Positions 6,657 to 58,625 of a DNA stretch of 64,000 bases are shown in pieces. The stretch lies in the NCBI GenBank assembly GCA_025823825.1, contig GCA_025823825.1_4720.1. One strand, given 5' to 3'. Made by a program: the position numbers and the translations under genes. Each line of letters opens with the position of its first letter. The stretch's first letter is position 1. The notes beneath the pieces were generated by a model. The model was not told where the DNA came from. It did no database searches and saw only the letters and a program-made list of their open reading frames with translations. The stretch comes from a phage.

Positions 6657-6688
6657 CCCTCCTCCTTCCCTGACGGGTTGGAGGAGGG
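6657..6688. terminator. conserved CCTCC/GGAGG hairpin element (family member 1)
   Basis: CCCTCCTCC-TTCCC-TGAC-GGGTT-GGAGGAGGG; flanked by CATAT on the 5' side and TTATG on the 3' side. Confidence 0.6.
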
Positions 6689-7482: not shown

Positions 7483-7913
7483 GTTTTAATATGCACATCG
7501 TCAATCCCCTCGGTAATCCAGCCGATGGGAAGGACAATCGTTGTTATCGTGTTATGTGTGTAAGGATTAAGAAAATGGAAATAGTAATTTGTGTTGGATT
7601 GTTCGATACGTAGGTCGAGCTGTGCGTCTTCAGGTAACCGTAACCAAGCACCGTACAGTTCATTAAACTTACGCTGAATTTTACCGGGGTTCATTGGAAC
7701 CCCACGACCACGTTGATGCAGCTGACGTAATGATTCAATCAAACACTCAGAGATACCCGTTGTCGTTCCGTTATCGCTCGTATCAACAACGATGAACTCT
7801 CGTGACCCACGACCAAGATAAAAACCAGCAACAAAAGCTGCAGCAACAAAAAATATCGTACCGATACCAATATACCAGTAGTAAGCATCCATAACGGCCT
7901 CACTTATACCCAA
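7479..7913 (-). CDS. membrane protein (144 aa)
   Basis: Track ORF; N-terminal hydrophobic helix YYWYIGIGTIFFVAAAFVAGFYLG. Confidence 0.6.
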   Translation of the reverse strand: MGISEAVMDAYYWYIGIGTIFFVAAAFVAGFYLGRGSREFIVVDTSDNGTTTGISECLIESLRQLHQRGRGVPMNPGKIQRKFNELYGAWLRLPEDAQLDLRIEQSNTNYYFHFLNPYTHNTITTIVLPIGWITEGIDDVHIKT

Positions 7914-9212: not shown

Positions 9213-9237
9213 TCACCTAAGTAATATAGCCGTGAAA
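9213..9237 (-). promoter_or_regulatory. promoter-like motif, copy 1 (TATATTAC core)
   Basis: Minus-strand reading TTTCACGGCTATATTACTTAGGTGA, about 25 nt upstream of the ATG at 9189; near-identical to the copies at 21.76 kb and 58.6 kb. Confidence 0.55.
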
Positions 9238-11503: not shown

Positions 11504-12727
11504 CTACTTCGTTTTCGCCGTTATCGGCTGCGATACTGTAATCTCGACACGATTTTCATCGGTACGTTTAACGATGATAAGGTTGCGTTCATCACCGAAC
11601 GGTTCTGAGATCTTACAAGCCTCTTTAAGATTTTCGAGAATCTTGCCATGGGGTTCAAACACCGCAAAACCGGAACTAGCGTCTATTCTTATTAGACTTA
11701 CACGCGTGCCGTTTACGGTAATAACATCTTCCGTCTTGAATTCACAACAGGAGGGTAGACGGAACTGGCCGGGAATACCGGCTACGTATGCCTCACCACC
11801 GAACATTTCTATTAATGTCACCGGTTTGAATGTTTTCTCTGGGAAAGCATTATTGAGGATATCGTTTCCATTCACAAACCAGATCGTTACTTTATCTTCA
11901 GAATACGCTAGTCGGTACGGTTGGGTTGCGGACGCTTGCGCTTTATGCTGGTTAAATAACTTTGATTTTGTCGCAATCACGGCACGACCTTCGGCGTCGA
12001 AGTACAGAACTTCATATCCAACACATCCGATAAACACGCGACGGTTATTAAGTTCCGGAATTCTGACTACTAACGCATTACCATCTTCCGTCGGTGTAAT
12101 ACCACGTAGGATGATAGATTCATTGTTCAATGTTGAGTTGCTCACGATGACGCTTCGCATTACCGCTGGCGACACTATTTTATCTGCTGCAGGTTCAAGT
12201 TGCTCCGCTGTTACAGTCATGGATCTGTCTTCGTTTTCAACTGGCCGGTTGAAAAGGATTGTTTTATTAAGACAAACAATTGGGGTAATTTCGCCGATAC
12301 TCCGTATCTTGACTGAGGGGCAATTGCACACATACGGAACAAAAACATCAATATCGTTGGTCGCTTCTTCAAGCATGCTAGCATACGCCATTGCTTCGGG
12401 ACGATCGGTGAGATGAATAACAGCATAGACGATATCGTCTTTTAACCACGCACGTTTCACTCGTCCTATAACACGATTGATGTCTACAATAACTCTCTGA
12501 GCTTTCATCTCCCATTTTACTGCATCAGTACCACCCGCAACCACGTTTGGTTTATCCGTGTTTACACGATGAAGGAAACTATTGATTATTTCCTCATTGA
12601 TCTGGATATCCTTTCTCGCAAAATTCAACAACGGAATAACGAACTCATTGTTACCGCACTTCTCTGCTCCGCGAATGATAGGAGTACACTTCTTGTTCTC
12701 ATCTGATCCCCAGATAACTTTAGTCAT
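11504..12727 (-). CDS. hypothetical protein (407 aa) in recombination cluster
   Basis: Track ORF between tmk and the RuvC-like gene; no calcineurin-type phosphoesterase or other motif recognised. Confidence 0.6.
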   Translation of the reverse strand: MTKVIWGSDENKKCTPIIRGAEKCGNNEFVIPLLNFARKDIQINEEIINSFLHRVNTDKPNVVAGGTDAVKWEMKAQRVIVDINRVIGRVKRAWLKDDIVYAVIHLTDRPEAMAYASMLEEATNDIDVFVPYVCNCPSVKIRSIGEITPIVCLNKTILFNRPVENEDRSMTVTAEQLEPAADKIVSPAVMRSVIVSNSTLNNESIILRGITPTEDGNALVVRIPELNNRRVFIGCVGYEVLYFDAEGRAVIATKSKLFNQHKAQASATQPYRLAYSEDKVTIWFVNGNDILNNAFPEKTFKPVTLIEMFGGEAYVAGIPGQFRLPSCCEFKTEDVITVNGTRVSLIRIDASSGFAVFEPHGKILENLKEACKISEPFGDERNLIIVKRTDENRVEITVSQPITAKTK

Positions 12728-12760
12728 TTTCTGTTTCCTTCTTGGGTTTTGTACATGTTG

Positions 12761-14205: not shown

Positions 14206-16662
14206 TTAAATAATCGTGACGTGTTCGTTATATGTTTCAGGGAGAATGATGTTCGTTTTATCAAGAACCATACACTCGGCTTTACGGAATGATGCATGGT
14301 TGATCACGTAGTGACTGATGAACCACACCTGGCTTACGCGGTGACCATCAACCAGACGACGAACAAAATCCATGGCATTAGATTGGTGCTGCGGATCAAA
14401 TGTTGATGCGAATTCATCTAACATCAACGGATAATCCGTAAACCCCTTGTAATGCATCATCGCGATGATGAACGCGATATTGATAATTTCCTTTTGTCCC
14501 TTACTCCCATAAACAATATCTTTTCGCGGTGTCGGATACTTCTCAGTTAAAAGCGGAAAACGATAGTTCAATCCTTGCGCGTCGATAGCACACGGGAGTA
14601 TCTGAAGTTGGTATTCCCAAATACTCGCAATGATACCATTCATGTATTCGACGAACGCGTTGATGGGACCCGCAATTGTTTCGGCAATCAGTCCGTTGGA
14701 TGGACTCAACTCATCCAGAACAAGTTGTGCGTAACTGAGCTGTTCTTCCACCTCTTTTTGTGTCGTTTCCAACTGAGCCAGAAGCTGCTGGTCGGTTTTA
14801 GCTTCCTGTAGTTGCTGTTCGACATGACTTATTCGGCGAACTGTATCAGACATCGCAGCACGTAACGATTTCGTGTAGAGGTGTTGCAGATACTCTAACC
14901 ACAGTTGCGTTAACGCTTTATCGCTGTTATCAGAACGCACCTGATCTTCCATAACCGCCGTAATGGTTTCCAATCTACCTTCCGTAGCTGTGATGGCTTG
15001 TGTTAACCGCTCAACGGTTGTTAACAACTCTGTCCTGTTCTTATAAAGCAATTCTCGACGTTGCTGTAACGGTTCAACATCAACCGCTTGTACCCGTTCG
15101 AGCATGCCTTGAAGATGCTTCCGTTCCTGTTCGGCTTGTGTGTAACGCGCAAGTTTCTCAAACGCAAGCAACCAATCGTTAATGATGCCAATGCTGCGGA
15201 ATCCTAAACCGTTTTTGCGGCCTTCTTCCAGCAGATTATCCCACATGGGTTTAATAGCGTAATAATCTTTCGTCCAACGTGTTAACTGACGATGTTGTTC
15301 CATCCAAAGCGTATAGCGCTGCACCTTCTCACTAAGCTCAGCTAACGATTTCTCCTGTTCTTCAACCCAGGCATGGCCCTTCTGAATACGTTGTTCAATA
15401 CCCGCTTTGCTGGTCTTTTCTGTCTCACCAACATGAAAGCGATAATTGCATTTTGGACAGCTGGTCTGGGGTTGATGGTTAAGGTGGTCGAGATGCGCTT
15501 CCAAATCGGCTAACGCATGTTTCGCGTTACGCAAACGCATTCTTGCCGCCTCTTCCTCCTTGATGTAAGCTTCAGCATCGTAAACATGATAGGTGTTGTC
15601 GGTATCAATCCATTCTTGGAGTAATTCCGTTAACGGAGCCTGAACTTGCGTGAGCTGTTGTAAACAAACCGCAGCGTCCAGATTCATCGTTAAAAGCTCG
15701 CCTGGATGATCTTGCTGAAGTTGTTCGTCCAAACGTGCGAGGCGGGCTTTAATCTGATCGATATCACCTTCACCAGACTGTTTCAACTGGTCAAGGATAT
15801 TATCGATACCCAACAGCTCGTCAACCTGACTTTCGAGTTTCGCATTCGCATTCGCGAGTTGCTCTCTTAGTTCAGCCAGATTCTGCTGTTCTTGTTGCGA
15901 TGTTCCTCCTTGGTAACGAACAACCGCATGAAGAAGCTCGCGATTAAAATGATGAGCACGTTGTGCGGATTCCAGAAGCTGTCGTTGATCAACATCACTA
16001 TCGAATAACGGCAATCCCATCATCGCTTCGAGCGCTGAGCGTTGCTGCTTTAACTCCGCTTCCAATCCCTGGTGGTCGGTTCCGGTGTATTTCGCTTCAA
16101 TGCGCTGTGATGTTTCAACCAACTTATTCAATGTATGCTCATTCACCGCTTTCAGTGAACGTACTTGTTGCTTAACAACCTGAAACAACTCGAGCGCATA
16201 ATCGACGTTAACCGGGCATATCTGCGTTAATCGTTCGCGACGTTTCATCGGTCCCATTTCGGTGAACTGGTAAGCTGTTTCGTAACCTAACAACAAACGA
16301 ATGGTGTCGTCATTAAGTTCGAAATGTTCTTCGATCAGTTTCCACTGGGCCGGTTGTGTGCCACCACCATTCAGGTTCTCGCTATCGTTAACGTAGAACT
16401 CATGCTTAAACCCTTTTTCTAAACGACTGATAAGACGGTATTGCTTATTACGGTGTTCGCAGCGGTACTCGTAATACCCGTCTTTATCAAAATCGGCACG
16501 CTCAGGAACGGTCGGATACAGCAAAGGCAATAGACTACTCTTACCCGAACCATTACTGCCTAAAATGAGTTGTACGGGATTATCTGGCCGGATGACCAGC
16601 TCCCGAATCATCCCGGTATCAAAACGATTGAATCCACGTAAGTGGAGATAGGTGCATCGCAT
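14206..16662 (-). CDS. Rad50/SbcC-like ATPase with zinc hook
   Basis: Walker A LILGSNGSGKSS; long central coiled coil with CPKC hook at mid-length; C-terminal signature-like GSKGQKE, Walker B LMLDEF and H-loop FISHY. Start set to the ATG at 16662 (MRCTYLHLRGF, AAGGA upstream). Confidence 0.85.
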   Translation of the reverse strand: MRCTYLHLRGFNRFDTGMIRELVIRPDNPVQLILGSNGSGKSSLLPLLYPTVPERADFDKDGYYEYRCEHRNKQYRLISRLEKGFKHEFYVNDSENLNGGGTQPAQWKLIEEHFELNDDTIRLLLGYETAYQFTEMGPMKRRERLTQICPVNVDYALELFQVVKQQVRSLKAVNEHTLNKLVETSQRIEAKYTGTDHQGLEAELKQQRSALEAMMGLPLFDSDVDQRQLLESAQRAHHFNRELLHAVVRYQGGTSQQEQQNLAELREQLANANAKLESQVDELLGIDNILDQLKQSGEGDIDQIKARLARLDEQLQQDHPGELLTMNLDAAVCLQQLTQVQAPLTELLQEWIDTDNTYHVYDAEAYIKEEEAARMRLRNAKHALADLEAHLDHLNHQPQTSCPKCNYRFHVGETEKTSKAGIEQRIQKGHAWVEEQEKSLAELSEKVQRYTLWMEQHRQLTRWTKDYYAIKPMWDNLLEEGRKNGLGFRSIGIINDWLLAFEKLARYTQAEQERKHLQGMLERVQAVDVEPLQQRRELLYKNRTELLTTVERLTQAITATEGRLETITAVMEDQVRSDNSDKALTQLWLEYLQHLYTKSLRAAMSDTVRRISHVEQQLQEAKTDQQLLAQLETTQKEVEEQLSYAQLVLDELSPSNGLIAETIAGPINAFVEYMNGIIASIWEYQLQILPCAIDAQGLNYRFPLLTEKYPTPRKDIVYGSKGQKEIINIAFIIAMMHYKGFTDYPLMLDEFASTFDPQHQSNAMDFVRRLVDGHRVSQVWFISHYVINHASFRKAECMVLDKTNIILPETYNEHVTII

Positions 16663-20269: not shown

Positions 20270-20545
20270 TTATACGGCTTTTCTGTGCGCGTAGAACGCC
20301 TTCGTTCCGTTGTTGATTGCTTCAACCACATCCCGGGTTAACACAACGGCGTTATCGCTTCGAGACGACGGTGCGTAATACCCTTCACCGTTCTCGGTAA
20401 TCAGGCGATAACGGACTAAGCCTATGCTCGGTTCAACACGTAGCACCTTTTCAAGTTTGTATTTGATGATCTTCGTCAGGCTGACTGTGTCTGACGCGTA
20501 GATTGCTTTATAAACCTTGTTCTTTGCTGTCGGTTTCATCAACAT
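20270..20545 (-). CDS. hypothetical protein (91 aa)
   Basis: Track ORF. Confidence 0.45.
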   Translation of the reverse strand: MLMKPTAKNKVYKAIYASDTVSLTKIIKYKLEKVLRVEPSIGLVRYRLITENGEGYYAPSSRSDNAVVLTRDVVEAINNGTKAFYAHRKAV

Positions 20546-20585
20546 GATTTCTGTTGTACTTTCCTTTTCGCTTGTTGGTGTTGGA

Positions 20586-20885
20586 TTAAGGTTTAGGTTC
20601 CGTTTTGTGTTGTGTGAGTAGTGTGTTGATCTGCTCCCGTTGTTCTTTTAAGTATGCGGGAAGCTGGTCTTCCCATACCGTTCCGATTTCCAACGTGATG
20701 TACCAGCGTTGTTCGGAAGCCAGCCATTGAAAACCGCTCTGTAAACGAAGGATGCTAGGATCACGTACCTTGCTTGCGCTGTAACGGTTGAACCAATCCA
20801 GGTATTCTGCTTTCCCTTCATCGTCGGCAACGTAACGCTGCACGCTGTTCTTCCCTTTGTTCTCGTATCCCGTTGCACGTATCAT
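20586..20885 (-). CDS. hypothetical protein (about 100 aa)
   Basis: Track ORF 20586..20939; the internal ATG at 20885 gives an ATGA overlap with the upstream stop; start choice is uncertain. Confidence 0.45.
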   Translation of the reverse strand: MIRATGYENKGKNSVQRYVADDEGKAEYLDWFNRYSASKVRDPSILRLQSGFQWLASEQRWYITLEIGTVWEDQLPAYLKEQREQINTLLTQHKTEPKP

Positions 20886-21664
20886 GCGAGCGTTGCTCCC
20901 GTATCGTGTTGCGTATGGCGTAGCATGGTAGCATCCCATTGTACGATCCGGCTCCGGCTTACCCGCATCATGATGGATTCGTCATCAAGCCCTGGTTGCA
21001 CAACCGGCAACCAACGTTCGTTAAGCACCTTCGCTTCAACGCGTTTCTTGCGGGGATTGTAACGCACCTCGCTAACCCAAGCGAATCCAAGTGGATGCAC
21101 AACCCGTGGATAATACATGCGGAGCAATTGATGCATCCGATCTGTCACCTCCAGGTTAACATCCACCATGTAAGGTTTCACCATGGTAAGCTTTTTGGTG
21201 TAATACGTTCCAACGGTATGGTTACGCCAGCATGGCAAGGCATGATCCCCTTCTCTCAGTTTGCTATCCGGGTTCATCGGCCAGAACTGCTGTTCACCGC
21301 CCAGCATCGCGTGCCGCCGATCAACGCAACGAACCTGATCGGCGAACAATGGATCCAGGATATCATCCACCGCGCCCTTATTGCGATAACCGTGATGTAC
21401 CACCAACCTGCTTGCGCTCATCCGTTGCGGATGCTGGCTCTTATGCGCATACAGTCCTCCATCACCGCGCGTGTCGTAAAGATAGCCGCATGCGCCACGC
21501 CATATCACCTTGCCTACGGTTCTCTCGTTTTCAAGCAGCATCGTCGGCCCATCAAGCAAATTGGTGAACCACTGCACCTTCACGCATTCCGCTTGGACAT
21601 GCTCAGGTAATGCCTGATACTCTTTTTGGGTGTATAAGGTATCAAAAATGATTTCATCGTTCAT
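20882..21664 (-). CDS. hypothetical protein (260 aa), first gene of the operon
   Basis: AGAGGA about 10 nt upstream of ATG; the promoter-like motif lies about 100 nt upstream. A 223-aa antisense ORF on the plus strand was rejected. Confidence 0.55.
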   Translation of the reverse strand: MNDEIIFDTLYTQKEYQALPEHVQAECVKVQWFTNLLDGPTMLLENERTVGKVIWRGACGYLYDTRGDGGLYAHKSQHPQRMSASRLVVHHGYRNKGAVDDILDPLFADQVRCVDRRHAMLGGEQQFWPMNPDSKLREGDHALPCWRNHTVGTYYTKKLTMVKPYMVDVNLEVTDRMHQLLRMYYPRVVHPLGFAWVSEVRYNPRKKRVEAKVLNERWLPVVQPGLDDESIMMRVSRSRIVQWDATMLRHTQHDTGATLA

Positions 21665-21754
21665 TTAAAAGATCCTCTGTTTTTCACGTTAATTAAACAA
21701 CGTATTGATTTCTATTCGATAGCAATACGAACATCGTACGTATGCATCATGAAG

Positions 21755-21771
21755 GTAATATAGCCGTGAAA
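21755..21771 (-). promoter_or_regulatory. promoter-like motif, copy 2 (TATATTAC core)
   Basis: Minus-strand reading TTTCACGGCTATATTACCTTCATGA; identical 17-nt core to copy 1. Confidence 0.55.
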
Positions 21772-22464
21772 GGATTTGTGTTACAGAAGGGTTTTGTTGT
21801 TTTTAAGAAGGGATGGATTTAGAAGAGGTGTTTCAAGGAAGGTAAACGAGGATAGGTATTTTGATTTAAGTAAGTAAGATGTTATCTGTATTTGTTAAAA
21901 GTGTATTGTTTATCTTAGGTTATGTCTTATTGTTTAATCGTTTAATATTTTTATCTACGTAGGTTTAACTCTATCTTGTTTGTATATTTAAATTAATTTA
22001 AAAGTAAGTCAATAAGCGTATCTTCAAAACAATGGATAACATGTGTTTACTACCTTAACGGTAACACATGTCATCTGTGCATTACACTCCGTTACATGCT
22101 GGTTAAATCGGATAACTCAAAAAAACATTTGTGATACTCTTCTTCACGTTGTTCATCAGAGTATCTCGTCTATACTCATTGCATTCGTATACGACATAAC
22201 CGTTATACGCTAACGCTACGCTTATAGCTTGATAACTCTAAGGATAAAAACATAAACTCGCTTCGCTCGTTTAGTTTTTCTTTTTCTTAGAGTTATCCTG
22301 TTGCTCGTCTCTAAAGGACTTCGCTCCTCCCCCGTCCCCCGAAGGGGCCGAGGTCGTGGAAATTTTACTTTCCAAATACATTTACAACATCTGTAAACTT
22401 TTACTCCAGGTACTTAATCTTATCATTAGAAATTATAAAAGAGAAGAATAAACATAAACATAAA

Positions 22465-22496
22465 CCTTCCTCCAACCCAGCAGGGAAGGAGGAAGG
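22465..22496. terminator. conserved CCTCC/GGAGG hairpin element (family member 4)
   Basis: CCTTCCTCC-AACCC-AGCA-GGGAA-GGAGGAAGG, 12 nt downstream of the stop of 22508..23401; CATAAACATAAA on the 5' flank. Confidence 0.6.
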
Positions 22497-22507
22497 GAGA
22501 GATTAAA

Positions 22508-23401
22508 TTATTCGGAAACGTTATAGCCGAATACTGCTTTACCGTAGGTGTGGGTACCGTCAGCTAACGACACCACTAACACATTGCTGTACGTAGCGTT
22601 AACACCATTGTCGGTAGAACTGGTGGTAGCACCGTTATAGACAAAGGTAGCTGTTTGCAGATTGGTTTTCAGTTCATTGATGATATCATCACTTACGCCG
22701 GTCTGCTCTTTGATCAGGGTGGTCAGGTTACCTGCTAAGCTTGCATCGATCTTGGTGTCGTTACTGGTAATAGCTTGTAAACCTGCAGTGTAGGTGCTGA
22801 AGTCTAACGGATAGGTTAACAGACGCGCTGAGGTCTTGGTACCATCGCCTTCATCAACGTAGGTTAAGTTACCCAGGTTGGTAACCTCGATGATGTTAGC
22901 CAGATCCAGCGTGGTGTTATAAACTTTAACTTGAACAGAGCCATACCACGCCAACGAATCTTCTTTGGCTTCCAGGGTGATCGTCTGGATACCAGACTGA
23001 TCGAAGGTAACCGGAGTAGCTAACGTTTCGGCTTTGATGTCTTTCGCTTTATCCAGGAACTTCTCACCGGAAGGCGTGATCATACCGTAGCGTTGAGCTA
23101 CAAGGTCAACCACATCACCGATGGTGGTGTTCGCCTCAACGTTAACACGTACGGCGATCTTCTGGAACCACTTAGCCAGATCCAGACGATGGTAGGTAAC
23201 ATCGCGGTTATTGAAGTAAGGGGTACCTTCACCAGGACTAAGTGTTAAAGTTGCTTCTGGAGCAGAAGGATTCTTTTCTTTAAGGACGTATTTAAGGTCG
23301 GTATATTTAAAGCTGGCACCAGTGTCAGCGTTAAGCTGGTTGATCTCATCAACGATAAGTTGCCAAGGTGTTTTTAAAGTAAGCGATACTTGAGCAGTCA
23401 T
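22508..23401 (-). CDS. abundant Thr/Ser/Asn-rich protein, probably structural (297 aa)
   Basis: Track ORF 22508..23677 trimmed to the ATG at 23401 (GAGGAAG upstream); codon usage is biased toward E. coli-preferred codons. Confidence 0.6.
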   Translation of the reverse strand: MTAQVSLTLKTPWQLIVDEINQLNADTGASFKYTDLKYVLKEKNPSAPEATLTLSPGEGTPYFNNRDVTYHRLDLAKWFQKIAVRVNVEANTTIGDVVDLVAQRYGMITPSGEKFLDKAKDIKAETLATPVTFDQSGIQTITLEAKEDSLAWYGSVQVKVYNTTLDLANIIEVTNLGNLTYVDEGDGTKTSARLLTYPLDFSTYTAGLQAITSNDTKIDASLAGNLTTLIKEQTGVSDDIINELKTNLQTATFVYNGATTSSTDNGVNATYSNVLVVSLADGTHTYGKAVFGYNVSE

Positions 23402-23540
23402 TTTCTTCCTCGATAGTTGGTACATCACTCTCAAAAGATGTAAGTGTTTACAGAAATTAATATATTTTATATTAAATGTGAATATTATGGAGAACGACTC
23501 CGAATCTCCTTTTCGACCATCAAAATCAGAGGACACGAAC

Positions 23541-24086
23541 ATGTCTACTTTAGACTTTAACAAAGCAGCGAAATCCCTTCTGCTTGATCTTATTAACACC
23601 AAAGCGACCCGCACATTGGCTGAAGAAGAACTGCAGTTCGGTACTCCGCAGGAATCTTCCGAACATGAAAAGAACACCGTTATTCAGCTGGACGCGGCGG
23701 CTGAAGCAGCTAACCTGCAGGGTACTCAGCAGTTCTACTACGATCGTCTGGCTCTGTCTGACGTTTTCGCTGATGTAACTGGTGATGTTACTTTCGAACT
23801 GCCGCACGGTACTGACAGCATTCAGGCTTCTGAGCTGGTAAGCAAGCTGGTCACCAAATTCGGTCTGGCTTCCCTGAATGGTGAAATCAGAGAAGAAACC
23901 TTCCAGCTGTCTGCCGGTACTGTTGGTGAGGTAATTCTGAATGCGATCGAGGGTGGCCTGGTATACACTGGTACTCTGCGAGTTGCCCTGACCTACGCAC
24001 TGGCACCAAAAGACGAACTGGCAACCGTTCTGGCGAATAACGTAGCTGAAGGTTTCGAGAAACCGACCGTTAGCGTTGTTGGCTAA
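23541..24086 (+). CDS. abundant small protein, probably structural (181 aa)
   Basis: ATG with AGAGGA 8 nt upstream; very strong codon bias (CTG, GGT, CGT, ACC, CCG); the antisense ORF 23550..24095 was rejected. Confidence 0.65.
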   Translation: MSTLDFNKAAKSLLLDLINTKATRTLAEEELQFGTPQESSEHEKNTVIQLDAAAEAANLQGTQQFYYDRLALSDVFADVTGDVTFELPHGTDSIQASELVSKLVTKFGLASLNGEIREETFQLSAGTVGEVILNAIEGGLVYTGTLRVALTYALAPKDELATVLANNVAEGFEKPTVSVVG

Positions 24087-25142: not shown

Positions 25143-27191
25143 TCAAATACCTTTGGTTCCCTTCACGTGATGTGCGATTTCTTCAACCATTGCACGCAGA
25201 GCACGAAGCTGTTGGTCGTGTTCGTACCAACCGCCTAACAGAACCCCGCTATACACCATGGTGTCAAGACTTAACAGTCCTTTATCTGATACGTTGATCA
25301 TTTCAGGGAACTGTTCTTGAACACGCTGTGCGATAACACCGATCTTCTCTACATCAGGATCGTAGTTGTGGCGGAAACGGGCAAGCCCGCTGCGCGCCAT
25401 TTCGCGTAAACGCTCACTAAGAGACTCTGGGTGGTCTTTCAGATAACGGATGTCGTGTTTACTGCGCTCATCCGAGCGAATGTATGCGTTAGGAACATCG
25501 ATGTTGCTGTTGAAGTACAACGCACTACCACCACCTGCAGAGTTCCCCCAATAGAAGCGTGTGATCTCACCGCCGCCATTCTCCGTGATGATGACATGTT
25601 TACCTAAACGCGTACCACCATTACCATCAACGAAGACCAGTTTGTTTCCGCTGTAAGAACCCCAGAACAAGCGTGTATCGATGATGTGTGTTGCAGCGAG
25701 ACGGGCGTTACGTGGTGTAGAATACACGGTGTTAACATCTTGCTGTGCATGCGCATCGGAAGCGATACCGTAGTTCTGTACGTTACCTAACCCAACCTGC
25801 GCTTTCGTAACAGCATGAGGGTTATCCCGACGGTTAGCGTGAGCGTTAACCAGATCGCCCGCTAATTTCTGAATTGCCCAGTTGGTAGACTGTGGTGTCA
25901 TGTAACGGTTAGTTGCAGAACCACCTTGCGCTTCAGCTTGGTTAGCGGTTGGGTAGTTCTCAACACTTCCTAACCCTACTTGTGCTTTAGACACTTGGTG
26001 TGGGTTATTCTTGTCAGCGATGTGTGCATTAAGCGGAACTAACGCAAAGGTCTCAATGGACGCTTTGGTTGTGTTCGGTGCCATTAATCGGTTAGCTGCA
26101 ACACCGGCACGCGCTTCTTCTTCAGAAGCCATTGGGTAGTCTTGCACATTCCCCAACCCAACCTGCGCTTTGGTTACCCTGTGTGGGTTGTTGTAATCGG
26201 CTTTATGCGCATTAAGTGGGATCAATGCGAACTGTTCAATCGCTGCAGCGGTGCGTAGCGGCGTCATGAAACGGTTGTTCGCTGTTCCGGCTTTCGCCTC
26301 ATCATCCGAAGCGGTCGGGAAGTTATCAACGTTCCCAAGGTTAACCTGCGCTTTCGTAACAGCATGAGGGTTATCCCGACGGTTAGCATGCGCGTCGACT
26401 AGATCGCCTGCCAGTTTAGCAATCGCCCATCCAACCGTCTGTGCCGTCATGTAACGGTCAGGTGCAGTACCGGCTTCTGCCTCCGCCTTGTTTGCGGTAG
26501 GATAGTTCTGTACGTTACCTAGTCCGACTTGGGCTTTTGTTACTTCGTGCGGGTTATCGGTACGGTTAGCGTGAGCGTAATGCAGATCGGTCAGATCTTT
26601 ATCCGCCGCTTGCATGTCTTTGCGTAGCTGATCGATTGCCGCCCAGAGACGGTTATCGGACGCAGCATCACCGATAAGTATTGCGGCCTTCAGTGAGTAG
26701 ATCGCTAAGCAAAGATGTTCGGTACCGTAAATAGCACTAACGTGGTGGATGTGTGGTTCAGGCGGATAGAGTTCCGGTTTGTTCTTGATGTCGTCCCAGT
26801 TGATCGGACGATCGTCAAGTTTGAGTTCTTCGATAGCCTGATATAACGCGTCAATAAGACTTACGTAAACACCACCGATGATACGATAGTCGTTAATTAA
26901 CGTCCCCTCGATATCATCGTTGATGATGGCGATCGCCGCACAGATTTCTTTACCTGCGTAAAGCGTCGCATCCTGATACAAGAAGATGGGTTTATAATCC
27001 ACGCCTCGTACCAGTGTCTTACCGGTAAGCTTTTCAGTGATGACCAGACTTTCGGTAAAGAACGGTCCGCCATCAAGGGCGTAACATTTATTCTCGGTTC
27101 GTGGAACGGTATGCTCTTCACCAACGATGTGGTTGCTGGCGAGTGTACCGGTCCAGTCCTCGGGGTACTTCAGGGTAATTGGTGTCGACAT
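25143..27191 (-). CDS. tail fibre protein with repeat array and C-terminal intramolecular chaperone domain
   Basis: Five repeats of about 55 aa, each with NPH.VTKAQVGLGNV.N[YF]P.A...EA.AGT; C-terminal ...SDERSKHDIRYL... resembles the autoproteolytic chaperone domain (peptidase S74-like) of tail fibres and spikes. Confidence 0.75.
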   Translation of the reverse strand: MSTPITLKYPEDWTGTLASNHIVGEEHTVPRTENKCYALDGGPFFTESLVITEKLTGKTLVRGVDYKPIFLYQDATLYAGKEICAAIAIINDDIEGTLINDYRIIGGVYVSLIDALYQAIEELKLDDRPINWDDIKNKPELYPPEPHIHHVSAIYGTEHLCLAIYSLKAAILIGDAASDNRLWAAIDQLRKDMQAADKDLTDLHYAHANRTDNPHEVTKAQVGLGNVQNYPTANKAEAEAGTAPDRYMTAQTVGWAIAKLAGDLVDAHANRRDNPHAVTKAQVNLGNVDNFPTASDDEAKAGTANNRFMTPLRTAAAIEQFALIPLNAHKADYNNPHRVTKAQVGLGNVQDYPMASEEEARAGVAANRLMAPNTTKASIETFALVPLNAHIADKNNPHQVSKAQVGLGSVENYPTANQAEAQGGSATNRYMTPQSTNWAIQKLAGDLVNAHANRRDNPHAVTKAQVGLGNVQNYGIASDAHAQQDVNTVYSTPRNARLAATHIIDTRLFWGSYSGNKLVFVDGNGGTRLGKHVIITENGGGEITRFYWGNSAGGGSALYFNSNIDVPNAYIRSDERSKHDIRYLKDHPESLSERLREMARSGLARFRHNYDPDVEKIGVIAQRVQEQFPEMINVSDKGLLSLDTMVYSGVLLGGWYEHDQQLRALRAMVEEIAHHVKGTKGI

Positions 27192-27204: not shown

Positions 27205-29802
27205 TTATAACGTGACTGTACCTAATTTGGTTGTCTTATTGAGATTAATGACAGAGATCTGGGTATCGCTGGTCGTAATCGTTCCGATATTAACGCGCTG
27301 TCCTTTATCATCTTCTTGCTTGTAGATGGTTAACTCCAGTTCTAACTGGTCGCCATTAGGAACAACGGAAACGTACCATGTTTTATTACCTGGTGAACTA
27401 TTATAGTCTTTTAGGTTATAATGGCCTTTAGGTAAGGTCATGGCCTTACCGGCAAACAAACATGAAATGTCCTCGTTGATATAAACGTCGAAACCGGAAG
27501 AAGCGATGACTGTTGAGGCCATTATTCGAGACGCGACGATACCACGATTATAGTCGTCGATTGTGGTACCTATGACATTGAATACTTGCCCCCCGTTACC
27601 CATAATGGTCGATTCGCTAGTGTTTACGTAGCCGATACCCCAAGTCGGATGAATGTTCCAGCGGTACCCACTGTTTTGTAAATACGTATACAAGTCTTCA
27701 TAGGCCGCATTCACCCAACTACCATCACTTTTTCGTCCAGCCCTAAATTGGAATGTGTTGCTATTTCCAGATGTTCCTCGGCCAAGAGGGACATGTCCCG
27801 CCACCAACCAACCATCTGTACTTTGCATATACGCGAACGAACCGTACGCTCTGTTATCGGCCCAAATATTCACGGTATCAACACGTTCAACGTAGGCGAT
27901 CACCTTTTGTACGCCGGTTATAGCGATTGAACCCTTGCGTGCCGACACATTAACTTCAGCAATTACGACACCCATTTTCCGCTGGCTGCTGTTAAATCCC
28001 AATACGACCATTAAACACGGTGCGTTTGTTGTTTCTGGAGGAATCGTTATCGATTGTTTCCAGTCGGTGATTCCGCTGAGTTTCGTTCCAGTATATGCGT
28101 TCCAGACGGTTTGTCCAGCCGATTTCAGATTCTGTTCAGAAATAGAAATGGCCTCGCCCTCAGGGATTAACGTGTCGTAATTGAGACCAATGTTGCTGGA
28201 TAGACGAAGGTCGTTTAAGTAAGATCCGCTGAGTGTGACGTTACCGTTACGATAAATTGTCAAGAATGGCGCAGCCAGGGAGTTTAATACCGTAAAGTTA
28301 CTCGATGGCATGAAACCATAGACATCGATGCCATTACCGTGGTAATGGTAGTTTGTCCAACTACCTTGATAACTTACGGTACGTGCATCGTAGTGGCCTT
28401 GTCCAAGACCGCTGCTGGATAACGTGTATATCTTGGTTGCTGATAGAAATGCGAGATATCCATGCGCTGCCAGAGCTCCAACTACCCTGTCTTTTATCTT
28501 TAACCAAGCTGAAGTATATAACGTACTGTCGGGATTCATTTTGGCTATTTCATCGTAAGCCGTGCCTGCGAAGTTTCCGATAGTGTACGTACGTATATCC
28601 GGCTGTCCGTTATTGTCGTTTTGTACAGCAATTACTTGCCCAGAATCATTGATATCGATATTACCGATACAGTTGTGAGCCCCCCACACCCAATATCCAT
28701 CTTTATAATTGGATTCTCCTTGTGTAAATGTCGACGGTCCTCGCCACGCGATGCCGTTCGATTCGGCGTAGTATGTAGCTTGTCCCGATCCTGGATTCAT
28801 GGCGTATCTGTTATTGGTCGGGTCAAAATCGATGTAAAAATGATGCATTCCTTGACGTTGACGGTTGTCCCGATCATTTGTCCACCACGACGAACCGACC
28901 AGAATTCGCGCTTTACCATTTTTTACAGTGGACCATAAACGTATTGCGGCGCGCCAGACGATTTGACCGATCCCGTTGGACGGGAAACTATTCGCACTGA
29001 TGCTGTTGCAGACAACGAGCTCGCTGCTGTTGTTTATTTGAGTCCCTTCAATTGTAACGCCGTTTATGTTAGTAATCAGTGTTGCCGATACGCTACCCCC
29101 TGTAGGGGCGATAGAGGAACGTTGAACGGTGTAAATTTTTAGTGATAATTTATAGCCGCTCCGAATAGCTATACCAATGTAAATAGTTCCGTTAATTTCC
29201 CAACAACAAACATCGGGCATTGTTTCTTTGAAATCGGATAAAGCACCGTCGATATACATCGCAACGTGTTTGCTGGCGTCGAATGTGCCGTCCGTTAACG
29301 CGATGAACATTTTGGCATTATTACCGTTGATATCAGCCGCTAATCCGAGTAGTATGTTGTTCTGATGACAGTAAATGGCTTTAGGCGCTAGATCCAACAT
29401 AGCTGGTTGGTACTGTCGGCTTGTTGGTATTACGCTAGTAACTGCGCCATTTTGATCCGTTTTACAAATAACGTAATATACACCGTGTATGATGCTGTTT
29501 GTCGCTGACCTCAGTAGGACGATCGTCCCGTCAGATTCACGACATATACCGTAATGGCGATAGTCGGTGATTAAACCGATAGCGCCATCGGCCGAACCTT
29601 CGATTGCCAGAGGAAAATAACTTTGGTCCCCAACCTGTTCGATATCGGTTACGCCAATATCGATGTATTTTTCCATCTCGGTGTTGAACTCAGCGGTACT
29701 GTAGGCACCGAGATCGCTCGCCTTTAGTCCCGTTGGGTTGTCACGACTGGCGATACGTGTAGTAACGCTACTCACCAGTTCGCTGAACTTTTTCATTGCC
29801 AT
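27205..29802 (-). CDS. large tail fibre or tail spike candidate (865 aa)
   Basis: Sits in the tail-fibre block; N-terminal ...RDNPTGLKASDLGAY... is related to the NP..VT.AQ motif of neighbouring fibre genes. Confidence 0.45.
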   Translation of the reverse strand: MAMKKFSELVSSVTTRIASRDNPTGLKASDLGAYSTAEFNTEMEKYIDIGVTDIEQVGDQSYFPLAIEGSADGAIGLITDYRHYGICRESDGTIVLLRSATNSIIHGVYYVICKTDQNGAVTSVIPTSRQYQPAMLDLAPKAIYCHQNNILLGLAADINGNNAKMFIALTDGTFDASKHVAMYIDGALSDFKETMPDVCCWEINGTIYIGIAIRSGYKLSLKIYTVQRSSIAPTGGSVSATLITNINGVTIEGTQINNSSELVVCNSISANSFPSNGIGQIVWRAAIRLWSTVKNGKARILVGSSWWTNDRDNRQRQGMHHFYIDFDPTNNRYAMNPGSGQATYYAESNGIAWRGPSTFTQGESNYKDGYWVWGAHNCIGNIDINDSGQVIAVQNDNNGQPDIRTYTIGNFAGTAYDEIAKMNPDSTLYTSAWLKIKDRVVGALAAHGYLAFLSATKIYTLSSSGLGQGHYDARTVSYQGSWTNYHYHGNGIDVYGFMPSSNFTVLNSLAAPFLTIYRNGNVTLSGSYLNDLRLSSNIGLNYDTLIPEGEAISISEQNLKSAGQTVWNAYTGTKLSGITDWKQSITIPPETTNAPCLMVVLGFNSSQRKMGVVIAEVNVSARKGSIAITGVQKVIAYVERVDTVNIWADNRAYGSFAYMQSTDGWLVAGHVPLGRGTSGNSNTFQFRAGRKSDGSWVNAAYEDLYTYLQNSGYRWNIHPTWGIGYVNTSESTIMGNGGQVFNVIGTTIDDYNRGIVASRIMASTVIASSGFDVYINEDISCLFAGKAMTLPKGHYNLKDYNSSPGNKTWYVSVVPNGDQLELELTIYKQEDDKGQRVNIGTITTSDTQISVINLNKTTKLGTVTL

Positions 29803-30871: not shown

Positions 30872-33025
30872 TTATAACGTTTCGAAGTCGGTTGCTTTGA
30901 TAACCGCGTTGAAGTTGGCAAGGAATTCCTTAAGCAGTGCTTGGAAGACATCACGAAACGCTGTGTTCGTCTGCAAGCTGGTTAAATAATCGTTCTTAAG
31001 GTAATCGCTCAGCTTACCGATCTTCTGCATCTTCTCGCCGTCTTGGTTCTCTCCAGGTTCTTGGCTGTTGATGTTAACCCATTTGATCCCTTCGAGATCG
31101 CCATCGGCAAGGAAGTTGGCGGGTGTCTCATCGTCGTTCAGGATTTTAATCGTATCACTGGATTCAATGCCACCGTAAGCTTCCAGAAGCTGGTTGACTG
31201 TTAGCTTATTGGTGTTGATTGAACCATTGACACCATCGATACCGATGCCTGCACCTGTGATGGATGTCGCCGAAAGATCGATCGGTCCGGTTAACTTACC
31301 ACCGTTGATCGGTAACGCACCAACTTGCTCAGCGGTGTGTGTGTGGCCAGCTAACGCCGCAAACGCCACGATAGACTTATACGTCGAATACGGCGTCATA
31401 TACGCTGATTGGTTGGTGTTGTCAGCCGCTTCAGTATCGGTAGCAACATTAAAGTTCTGCACGTTGCTGAGACCGACCTGCACCTTCGTTACTTCATGCG
31501 GGTTGCTCTTATTGACAACGTGTGCTGCAAAACCATCACCAGCTAAAGCAGTGATTGCCGCTTTTGTCGCAGCCGGTGTCATATAGCGGTTGGTTGCTTC
31601 ACCCGTTTGCGCCTCTTCGTCGGAAGCAACAGGATAGTTCTCAACGCTTCCCAAACCGACCTGAGATTTTGTTACTTGGTGTGGGTTTTCGGTATTCGCA
31701 ATATGACTACTGAACCCTTGACCCGCCAGTTGCTCGATTGCGTAACGAACAAGTATTGGTGTCATGTACTTGTTGTTAACTTGACCATCGATAGCTTCTT
31801 GGGTGGTGGCAACCCCGAAGTTTTGCACGCTCCCCAACCCAACTTGCGCTTTCGTAACAGCGTGGGGGTTATTGGTGTTACCGATGTGATCGGTAACCGT
31901 TGGGGTGATTAATCCTGCGATAGCGGCTGCCGTGGTCGCAGGGGTCATGTATTTATCGTTAGCAACACCCGCAGCAGCTTCTACGTTAGATGCTACACCG
32001 TAGTTCAATACATTTCCTAACCCAACCTGAGCCTTGGTTACCCCATGTGGGTTATTGGTGTTGCCGGTATGGGTTGTCAACGTAGCGTTAACGTTATCGA
32101 TACGCGTGCTTAAGCCATCGGTGATTGCTTTGATTGCGGCTCGTACGCCCGCTGGTGTTGTGTACAGATTTGTGGCCGTACCGGTAATGGTTGTATTACT
32201 ATCAGCTACACCGTAGTTCTCAACGTTTCCGAGTCCCACCTGGGCTTTCGTTACCTTGTGTGGGTTGTTGTAGTTGCTGATGTGCGCAGCAGCACTATCA
32301 CCACTCAGGTTAGCGATCATCTTACGCGTCATCGCCAACGTCATGTACAGATTTTCACCGATGGTTTCCAGATCGCTCTCGGTCGCCGTTGTGAAGTTCT
32401 GAACATTCCCCAATCCAACTTGAGCCTTGGTTACCCCGTGGGGGTTATCGCGACGATTCTCGTGCTGCAGCAATGCGGTCATTGCTTTATTGAACCCTTC
32501 TTCAAGCGGTTCTTTCAATGATTCGATTGCCGCCACCACATCGTCCCACGTCATTGTGTCGGTTTCGACATTATGTTGGTGGTTGATTGGTGGGAATACG
32601 GAAGGAACGTCGGCAACCTTTTCCCAGAACGTAACGCGGGGATCGTAAAGGTTGTTGGCTAAAACGTTAAGAATTTGTTGTTGATCAAGTGTAAACTCAC
32701 CCCCCAGTGAATAGTAGTTCAGTTGCAACTGTCCACTGAATGCGGTGTCCAACAGCATGATGGAACCGTATAATTCCAGGCCGGTCAGCGCAGCCATGGC
32801 ACGGAAGGGGTGAGTGCATAAAAAGTCAACGCCTTCTTCCAGATACGCGTTTGTTTCATGGTTGTAGATCTTTAACCCATTACGGAAATATGGCGCGTAT
32901 TTAGGAACGAGAAAGTTAAATCCGGTCCCCGTGGAAGGACGGACAGTGACGAGTTCTTCTGGAACCCATGCGCCATCCAAATTCCCCTGCGGGTTATACG
33001 GAAGGCGTTTAATTTCATCTGTCAT
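30872..33025 (-). CDS. tail fibre protein with about 7 tandem repeats (717 aa)
   Basis: Repeats NPH[GA]VTKAQVGLGNV.NF/Y...A.AG..N.YMTP; C-terminal HTHTAEQVG. Confidence 0.7.
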   Translation of the reverse strand: MTDEIKRLPYNPQGNLDGAWVPEELVTVRPSTGTGFNFLVPKYAPYFRNGLKIYNHETNAYLEEGVDFLCTHPFRAMAALTGLELYGSIMLLDTAFSGQLQLNYYSLGGEFTLDQQQILNVLANNLYDPRVTFWEKVADVPSVFPPINHQHNVETDTMTWDDVVAAIESLKEPLEEGFNKAMTALLQHENRRDNPHGVTKAQVGLGNVQNFTTATESDLETIGENLYMTLAMTRKMIANLSGDSAAAHISNYNNPHKVTKAQVGLGNVENYGVADSNTTITGTATNLYTTPAGVRAAIKAITDGLSTRIDNVNATLTTHTGNTNNPHGVTKAQVGLGNVLNYGVASNVEAAAGVANDKYMTPATTAAAIAGLITPTVTDHIGNTNNPHAVTKAQVGLGSVQNFGVATTQEAIDGQVNNKYMTPILVRYAIEQLAGQGFSSHIANTENPHQVTKSQVGLGSVENYPVASDEEAQTGEATNRYMTPAATKAAITALAGDGFAAHVVNKSNPHEVTKVQVGLSNVQNFNVATDTEAADNTNQSAYMTPYSTYKSIVAFAALAGHTHTAEQVGALPINGGKLTGPIDLSATSITGAGIGIDGVNGSINTNKLTVNQLLEAYGGIESSDTIKILNDDETPANFLADGDLEGIKWVNINSQEPGENQDGEKMQKIGKLSDYLKNDYLTSLQTNTAFRDVFQALLKEFLANFNAVIKATDFETL

Positions 33026-49927: not shown

Positions 49928-49952
49928 TCACCTAGGTAATGTAAGCGTCAAA
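49928..49952 (-). promoter_or_regulatory. degenerate copy of the promoter-like motif
   Basis: Minus-strand reading TTTGACGCTTACATTACCTAGGTGA matches the consensus at 19 of 25 positions, about 150 nt upstream of the start of 48341..49777. Confidence 0.35.
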
Positions 49953-58600: not shown

Positions 58601-58625
58601 TCACCTTAGTAATATAGCCATGAAA
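58601..58625 (-). promoter_or_regulatory. promoter-like motif, copy 3 (TATATTAC core)
   Basis: Minus-strand reading TTTCATGGCTATATTACTAAGGTGA; differs from copy 1 at 2 of 25 positions. Confidence 0.55.

Follow-up and report, generated by a model that had tools for sequence, protein, structure and literature searches.

A conserved, structured segment in the gp021-gp022 gap of Goslar-like nucleus-forming phages is a candidate non-coding RNA gene

Escherichia phage vB_EcoM_Goslar (hereafter Goslar; NC_048170) is a jumbo phage that infects E. coli and forms a nucleus, and it belongs to the Chimalliviridae. We analyzed a 64,000-nucleotide (nt) stretch of DNA from a close relative (contig GCA_025823825.1_4720.1, referred to here as the window) and found that the gap between its gp022 and gp021 homologues, at positions 21665-22507, contains a conserved, structured core (22119-22426, minus strand). 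Our preferred explanation, to which we give an even chance of being correct on the strength of sequence comparison, is that the core is a new minus-strand gene for a structured non-coding RNA (ncRNA) of ~300 nt. The core lies over Goslar 15429-15737; the gap corresponds to Goslar 14972-15825, where the record carries no annotation, and is the biggest unannotated gap of that record (feature tables, judged by eye). As the genes on either side are both minus-strand, the gap is to be read on that strand, and in this direction it presents the gp022 terminator, the ~300-nt core, a facultative hairpin, an AT-rich spacer and the early promoter of the gp021 operon. It is a composite minus-strand intergenic region with ordinary signals at its edges, and we directly observed its anatomy, its conservation, its phyletic distribution and substitutions compatible with the structure of the core.

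Relatives were gathered with a 22-mer scan of metagenomes, which returned eight loci, one of them a chance match, and with a gp022 homologue search, which returned 72 protein clusters at 50-93% identity, many from Salmonella, Shigella and E. coli assemblies; Goslar-like phages have been reported to persist in bacterial isolates (bioRxiv 10.1101/2024.12.31.630880). Metagenome locus L016, a GC-rich chance match, was discarded as a core homologue. Contigs encoding gp022 homologues were fetched for comparison, giving a sample of phage isolates, metagenomes and bacterial assemblies. Bacterial assemblies are the source of roughly 60 Goslar-like genomes in all. Across 20 distinct Goslar-like genomes the core is 93-100% identical. 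The mean pairwise difference per site is 0.00-0.06 in the core, compared to 0.09-0.32 in the gp022 coding sequence and 0.3-0.7 in the AT-rich spacer. In the deepest comparison, with L010-type phages whose gp022 is 77-80% identical at the amino acid (aa) level, the core is 93% identical versus 74-76% for the aligned stretch of gp022 plus gap; in these phages the genes downstream of the gap have been replaced by unrelated ones and the core has been kept. Positions 22126-22424 (299 nt) are invariant in four genomes (the window, Goslar and two IMG/VR genomes), and this is the longest invariant run in a ~12-kb four-genome alignment, the runner-up measuring 107 nt. On the minus strand, conservation starts ~20 nt before the first hairpin, at ATAAGATTA, in all relatives and ends exactly at CACAAAUG, followed by a U-run whose length ranges from 5 to 9 across genomes (U7 at 22119-22125 in the window). 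Variant sites are reshuffled in L025 and L034, indicating recombination inside the core.

An earlier reading of the window by a model (the original prediction) had described the gap as one AT-rich non-coding region with nested inverted repeats, and had named absence from close relatives as one thing that would count against it. All close relatives that we examined have the region, so this check does not refute the prediction, and the idea of a single gap-wide element has to be narrowed: the gap is not uniform, strong conservation is limited to 22119-22426, and the AT-rich part and the hairpin at 22035-22075 vary or are missing in relatives.

Consensus folding of 15 sequences with RNAalifold yielded about nine hairpins in the core, here numbered along the minus strand: H1 (22380-22398), H2 (22357-22374), H3 (22330-22353), which carries a cUUCGg tetraloop in the minus sense, H4 (22314-22329), H5 (22232-22296), H6/H7 (22197-22228), H8 (22168-22195) and H9 (22133-22165). 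H5 and H8 have a common apical module composed of a C-G pair, tandem G.A/A.G mismatches, two base pairs and a triloop. The consensus contains 84 pairs at which 99.6% of alignment cells are standard pairs, compared to 39-52% when the 3' partners are slid by 1-3 columns. Covariation was found at two adjacent apical pairs of H8, one appearing as A-U, G-U and G-C and the other as U-A and C-G. A helix at 10-12/327-329 crosses the U-run and was dropped as likely spurious. Two repeats named in the original prediction were recovered in this part of the gap: the 12-base-pair (bp) perfect inverted repeat has arms at 22231-22250 and 22278-22297, of which the first 12 bases are perfect, and the GC-rich stem-loop can be read directly from the sequence at 22330-22353. 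These and the other features it named were found exactly, or within a few bases of, where it had placed them.

For 22100-22470, none of 100 dinucleotide shuffles folds as well as the natural sequence on either strand (z of -3.5 for the minus and -4.7 for the plus strand), and thermodynamics therefore does not pick the strand. Substitutions do discriminate. All four single transitions in stems produce G-U wobbles that fit the minus sense only (47-59 in H1, 90-111 and 91-110 in H3, and one in H8 in L015). The plus strand would turn these wobbles into A.C mismatches, and the same helices are canonical in 99.6% of cells on the minus strand versus 91.5% on the plus strand. The consensus energy is -78.9 in the minus sense (structure conservation index of 0.91) versus -61.3 in the plus sense (0.84). 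Together these results mean that the RNA reading and the minus-strand call are supported, not proven. Among the three functions that the original prediction had offered for the gap (an ncRNA, a replication origin or a multi-promoter hub), the ncRNA is the best supported, based on conservation, compensatory and wobble changes and the U-run end, once it is limited to the ~300-nt core.

Several observations weigh against an RNA gene. When each strand is measured against its own shuffles, the plus strand folds no worse than the minus strand. Variation in the core is very low: covariation amounts to two adjacent pairs plus four wobbles, several of which are linked on one lineage, and most pairs never vary. 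Predicted pairs are disrupted by three changes: one at 217-224, seen in two genomes, one at 254-268, seen in L024, and one at 33-143, seen in a single genome. A long-range helix, 31-34/142-145, that appeared to covary in RNAalifold was rejected because its pair 32-144 is broken in L034, L020 and L035. H9 and the U7 run do not form a canonical intrinsic terminator because 8 nt part the stem from the U-run, and a Goslar-wide motif scan revealed no recognisable early-type promoter upstream of the core. One coding stretch 5 kb away is equally conserved (94-96%) in the deep comparison. In addition, these phages are mosaic, with 24 exact runs of at least 299 nt between the window and Goslar alone; as such runs are common in this pair we rejected the length of the window-Goslar exact match as a sign of constraint, and the argument from conservation therefore rests on the many-genome comparison. 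Finally, the literature searched contains no account of the gp021-gp022 gap.

We compared the core to known RNAs and proteins. Two permissive-filter scans of Rfam 15 (20500-24000 and 22090-22460), covering families that include 6S RNA, phi29 pRNA, group I/II introns, riboswitches, ribozymes, tmRNA and RNase P, returned only chance-level matches (E of 2.4-8, at 15-17.5 bits versus gathering scores of 43-70). ARAGORN found no tRNA or tmRNA gene in the whole window, in line with the lack of tRNA hallmarks remarked on earlier. As predicted, no credible open reading frame (ORF) is present: none of more than 56 aa overlaps 21665-22507 on either strand, the longest in the gap measure 56, 36 and 31 aa, and the small gap ORFs have no Pfam or PHROGs match. 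The 56-aa ORF, on the plus strand, is frameshifted by T-run length variants among relatives; the 36-aa ORF, on the minus strand at 22271-22381, is of low complexity and has no Shine-Dalgarno sequence, and it shows no indels in the sample.

The core is single-copy: apart from a box of 12-16 nt described below, neither the window nor Goslar contains it again, in full or as a partial paralogue. Complementarity to phage mRNAs was limited to 12-nt matches at chance frequency. The core was not found in E. coli complete genomes, plasmids or other sequenced phages, and a 22-mer scan of GTDB genomes gave 0 matches. In the literature searched there is no Goslar ncRNA besides two annotated group I introns, no trans-acting RNA gene for the nucleus-forming phage group and no mapped replication origin for any nucleus-forming phage. 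A strand-specific time-course RNA-seq data set for Goslar, spanning 5-60 min after infection, has been published and is reported per gene only (bioRxiv 10.1101/2023.09.20.558163).

The phyletic distribution of the core is narrow. In two outgroup phages, whose gp022 is 51% identical, the early promoter follows within ~20 nt of the terminator and is in turn followed by a 94-aa membrane ORF, and the core is missing at the site. Since terminator abuts promoter in the outgroups, the core and spacer are a gain of the Goslar-like clade. The outgroup sites lie at L009 5882-6257 and L039 2161-2530; in L009 the hydrophobic 94-aa ORF was missed by the gene caller, producing an apparent 375-bp gap. Other genera of chimalliviruses were compared too: in Seoulvirus and Derbicusvirus, gp022 finds its best matches in tightly packed paralogue arrays, which have no comparable syntenic gap.

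A short palindrome opens the core and recurs elsewhere in the genome. The box AGTAAAAGTTTACAGA (22390-22405, minus strand) has the form GTAAA-N2-TTTAC and lies in the conserved leader of the core, a candidate promoter region (22390-22440, minus strand). An exact copy of this 16-mer is present at Goslar (L031) 173084-173099, ~115 nt upstream of the early promoter of the nuclear-shell gene chmA, and variants with 1-2 mismatches are found ~90 nt upstream of gp023 (window 23440-23453, plus strand), upstream of the HNH gene gp069, and at Goslar 176758 and 188961. The box may be a second promoter or operator motif. The chmA homologue of phiKZ has both an early and a middle promoter (PMC8244752).

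We infer that the core is transcribed, with ends, promoter and mode of action that could be as follows. The candidate RNA would have its 5' end within the 40 conserved nt that follow the terminator, close to the GTAAAAGTTTACAG box also present upstream of chmA, and would end at hairpin H9 and the U7 run. The gap would then be ordered as the terminator of the late virion gene gp022, the RNA gene, the facultative hairpin, a largely unconstrained AT-rich spacer, and the early promoter and leader of the gp021 operon. Because almost every position is fixed, loops and linkers included, the RNA would be trans-acting and densely contacted, as in a protein-binding scaffold or a ribonucleoprotein, and not a simple antisense RNA. 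A more specific proposal is that the core yields a nucleus-resident RNA taking part in genome transactions, either as an origin primer or regulator RNA processed by the RNase H-clamp polymerase subunit or as a ribonucleoprotein scaffold; we regard this as improbable. It is speculation that such an RNA has to do with how these 'virulent' phages persist, unusually, in isolates of Salmonella, Shigella and E. coli.

The same conservation could arise if the core acted as double-stranded DNA, a binding platform for phage DNA-binding proteins (operators, a late/early enhancer or insulator, or a nuclear genome-organising site) whose palindromic sites appear as hairpins. Loops and linkers are conserved too, as if the sequence itself were read, and the GTAAA-N2-TTTAC box, which would fit a DNA-level reading of the first hairpin, occurs at four to five other intergenic sites that include those upstream of chmA and gp023. 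H1 itself is made of three GTAAA/TTTAC half-sites, GATAAC-type repeats are present inside and after the core (D7, I4), and the locus lies between a terminator and an early promoter. However, several stems are imperfect palindromes with one-strand G-U pairing, and transitions keep those wobbles for no reason that operates at the DNA level. The compensatory changes at the apex of H8 alter sequence and keep pairing, the cUUCGg tetraloop and the U-run end are RNA features, and an invariant stretch of 300 bp without a break is long for operators. We consider a DNA platform unlikely on balance. We deem it very unlikely that the core is functionless, owing its uniformity to recent recombinational spread or hitch-hiking among mosaic Goslar-like genomes, or that, in a variant of this idea, it hides a small protein gene. 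The patchy identity between the window and Goslar, with its 24 long exact runs, the equally conserved coding stretch and the reshuffled variant sites in L025 and L034 are what such a spread would predict, and the absence of indels from the 36-aa ORF favors the protein variant. Against this, the non-coding DNA flanking the core on one side is the most variable of the locus, and in each of 20 genomes, sampled across hosts and continents, a sweep would therefore need to have ended precisely at the first hairpin and at the U-run; the fold is also far better than chance. The 36-aa ORF is of low complexity and has neither a ribosome-binding site nor a family match, and T-run length changes break the 56-aa plus-strand ORF.

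The main rival to a trans-acting RNA gene is an R-loop origin of replication, which is compatible with the core being an RNA and gives it a role in cis. A promoter would drive a structured transcript into an AT-rich unwinding element; the RNA would stay hybridised, be trimmed by the RNase H-clamp protein and prime DNA synthesis. ColE1 RNA II and T4 oriF/oriG are transcript-primed R-loop origins of this kind, and the likeness lies in a structured, multi-stem-loop transcript with a G-rich tract, predicted here, that is read toward an AT-rich stretch. In the Goslar counterpart of the spacer we found the lowest-GC 300-bp windows (28-31% GC) of the whole 237-kb genome; read along the direction of transcription, they come immediately after the core, such that the GC minimum adjoins the candidate structured segment on its downstream side, as expected of an origin. 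The candidate RNA contains the G-rich tract GGGGGACGGGGGAGGAG, the short AGATAA- and TTGTTTA-type repeats of the spacer share one orientation, and the gap is the largest non-coding gap of the genome. The catalytic RNase H activity of Goslar Rhc has been reported to be necessary for genome replication (PMC13648698). On the other side, there is no GC-skew switch at the locus: at 15 kb the cumulative Goslar skew keeps its slope, which changes instead near 100 kb and 214 kb. GC skew in phages is confounded by transcription, which makes this a weak negative. The AT-rich part is also the most variable and least conserved of the gap, with large indels and loss of the hairpin, a pattern more in keeping with relaxed constraint than with an essential unwinding element, and any phage DNA free of constraint is expected to be low in GC. 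Further, the spacer has no A-tract phasing and no clear regularly spaced iterons, and the two outgroup phages lack such a locus at the site. As differences from the ColE1 and T4 origins, the AT-rich stretch is poorly conserved and GC skew lends the origin reading no support. The origin that the original prediction had entertained thus keeps the low-GC stretch just downstream of the core in its favor and has the skew and the variability of that stretch against it, and we think it unlikely while ranking it ahead of the other rivals. As a separate observation, the cumulative skew of Goslar is flat from ~214 kb across the record ends to ~100 kb, and over the remaining 100-214 kb it is steadily negative, though the genes are almost all on one strand.

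Next to the candidate RNA gene, the remainder of the gap consists of poorly conserved DNA and ordinary signals. The AT-rich variable spacer (21870-22118) has a GC content of 28.5% and contains TTGTTTA- and AGATAA-like short repeats; it differs between relatives by large and numerous indels. The AT-richness noted originally holds for the gap as a whole (34% GC versus 47% for the window) and is most pronounced at 21880-22030 (22.5%), and the TTGTTTA-like repeats are borne out by a 7-10 fold enrichment of TTGTT, TGTTT and GTTTA. The DNA curvature suggested as a check came out negative, with no significant A-tract phasing of the spacer at 10-10.5 bp. Within the spacer lies the facultative hairpin (22035-22075, minus strand; inverted repeat I8), the counterpart of the 11-bp inverted repeat reported near 22033-22070, with 13-nt arms at 22035-22047 and 22063-22075 and a loop that varies between relatives. 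It is missing from L004, L019 and L020, and in L010-L012 the arms are kept and the loop is replaced.

The two edges of the gap carry signals of known classes. At the high-coordinate edge is the predicted gp022 terminator (22445-22496, minus strand), in which a GC-rich, Goslar-type hairpin (22465-22496, inverted repeat I9) starts 12 nt past the gp022 stop codon and is followed by the T-rich tail UUUAUGUUUAUGUUUAUU, present on the minus strand only. The only tandem repeat in the gap, (ATAAAC)3, falls within this tail. This hairpin, called conserved in the original prediction, is one of a family that has 6-7 members in the window, the further ones at 6657, 10813, 34421, 49990, 54782 and 58660, and copies of the family align to stretches annotated as putative terminators in the Goslar record. 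Three Logan short-read contigs (L022, L026 and L028) break off in the repeated terminator hairpin or the AT-rich gap, 30-50 nt beyond the gp022 stop codon, marking the locus as a recurrent assembly break point.

At the opposite edge, 21747-21784 (minus strand) reads tttcaCGGCTATATTACcttcatga, with the core motif CGGCTATATTAC at 21755-21766, and is predicted to be an early promoter of the virion RNA polymerase type for the gp021 operon. In chimalliviruses, an AT-rich phage-specific motif of ~10 nt upstream of early operons marks virion RNA polymerase early promoters (PMC7598289), and the predicted promoter agrees with this class in motif, recurrence and strand. Its family, tttcaCGGCTATATTACyTAGGTGA, has four copies in the window, one of them the promoter copy 2 of the original prediction (9221-9232, 21755-21766, 49936-49947 and 58609-58620, all minus strand), and ~11 copies in Goslar, every one on the minus strand and upstream of minus-strand operons that include chmA. 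The chmA copy lies ~75 nt upstream of the chmA start codon and coincides with a published transcription start site region derived from RNA-seq (bioRxiv 10.1101/2023.09.20.558163). At two other promoters of the window the motif comes within ~30 nt after a terminator hairpin; at the gp021-gp022 gap ~700 nt are interposed. The count of sigma-70 promoters and intrinsic terminators in the gap is no higher than in shuffles. Chimalliviruses do not use the host polymerase. Downstream of the promoter, the 5' leader of the gp021 mRNA (21665-21746, minus strand) contains a small hairpin (21701-21729, inverted repeat I14) and the stretch AATCAATACGTTGTTTAATTAACGTGAAA (21682-21710), conserved in relatives and present once in the window. 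L004 (IMG/VR UViG_3300011560_000001) has two copies of the early promoter ahead of its gp021 homologue, at ~7640-7720, where ~43 extra bases carry a second TTACCTTCATGATG. The multi-promoter hub proposed earlier survives in a trivial sense only, the edge motifs being the gp022 terminator and the gp021-operon early promoter, both on the minus strand. Early promoters and hairpin terminators of phiKZ-like phages are the classes to which these two motifs belong, and they account for only ~90 of the 840 bases, leaving the core unexplained.

The window and Goslar align in long blocks at 92-97% identity (96.6% overall) and are ~90% identical around the gap by BLAST. Upstream of the gap lies the gp022 homologue (22508-23401, minus strand, 297 aa; ORF list and start codon), a DUF7941 virion structural protein that is 88% identical to Goslar gp022 at the aa level and has homologues with PF25613; gp022 has served as a late mRNA FISH target in published work. 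Downstream lies the gp021 homologue (20882-21664, minus strand, 260 aa; ORF list and Goslar annotation), a hypothetical protein of no known family and with no Pfam or PHROGs match, whose position is occupied by unrelated genes in L010-type phages. The 5' third of this gene (21228-21576) has no BLAST alignment to Goslar and the remainder of the gene and the gap align at >90%; by this comparison 21228-21576 is a putative mosaic breakpoint adjoining the early promoter. Positions 12208-12734 and 27759-28613 likewise have no BLAST alignment to Goslar and appear to be insertions or replacements relative to it. Elsewhere in the window, arrays of a 183-nt (61-aa) tandem repeat, 60-79% identical, occur at 25754-26612 and 31435-32464 in the Peptidase_S74 / YomR-like counterparts of Goslar gp025 and gp029, both of them large virion genes. 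Goslar has its second-largest unannotated gap at L029 82470-83288 (819 bp); this one follows the NUMOD1/HNH gene gp069 beside the DNA polymerase fragment gp068 and is probably unannotated intron or exon sequence.

Structured ncRNAs carried by phages have precedents, namely phi29 packaging RNA, GOLLD and ROOL. Like these, the core is phage-borne, is predicted to fold independently into multiple hairpins, has no ORF and is conserved above neighbouring genes; it differs from them in having no Rfam match, in its size of ~300 nt and in being restricted to one genus of nucleus-forming phages. Closer to Goslar, the ncRNAs described in phiKZ are antisense transcripts, or one predicted 75-nt RNA that was not confirmed by Northern blot (PMC8244752; review PMC13282480). 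These are non-coding transcripts of a chimallivirus, as the core would be, although none is a conserved intergenic structured RNA of 300 nt and phiKZ has no sequence relative of the core.

Nucleus-forming jumbo phages have their E. coli model in Goslar, whose annotation lists only proteins, two introns and terminators. For this group of phages the present analysis adds an early-promoter consensus with ~11 sites, a family of terminator hairpins and a second recurrent box upstream of chmA. RNA-seq of Goslar exists, and RNA-targeting knock-down with dCas13d or antisense oligomers works in this phage. A 300-nt element that is nearly unchanged across more than 20 genomes is a concrete candidate for a trans-acting RNA gene or a mapped origin in nucleus-forming phages.

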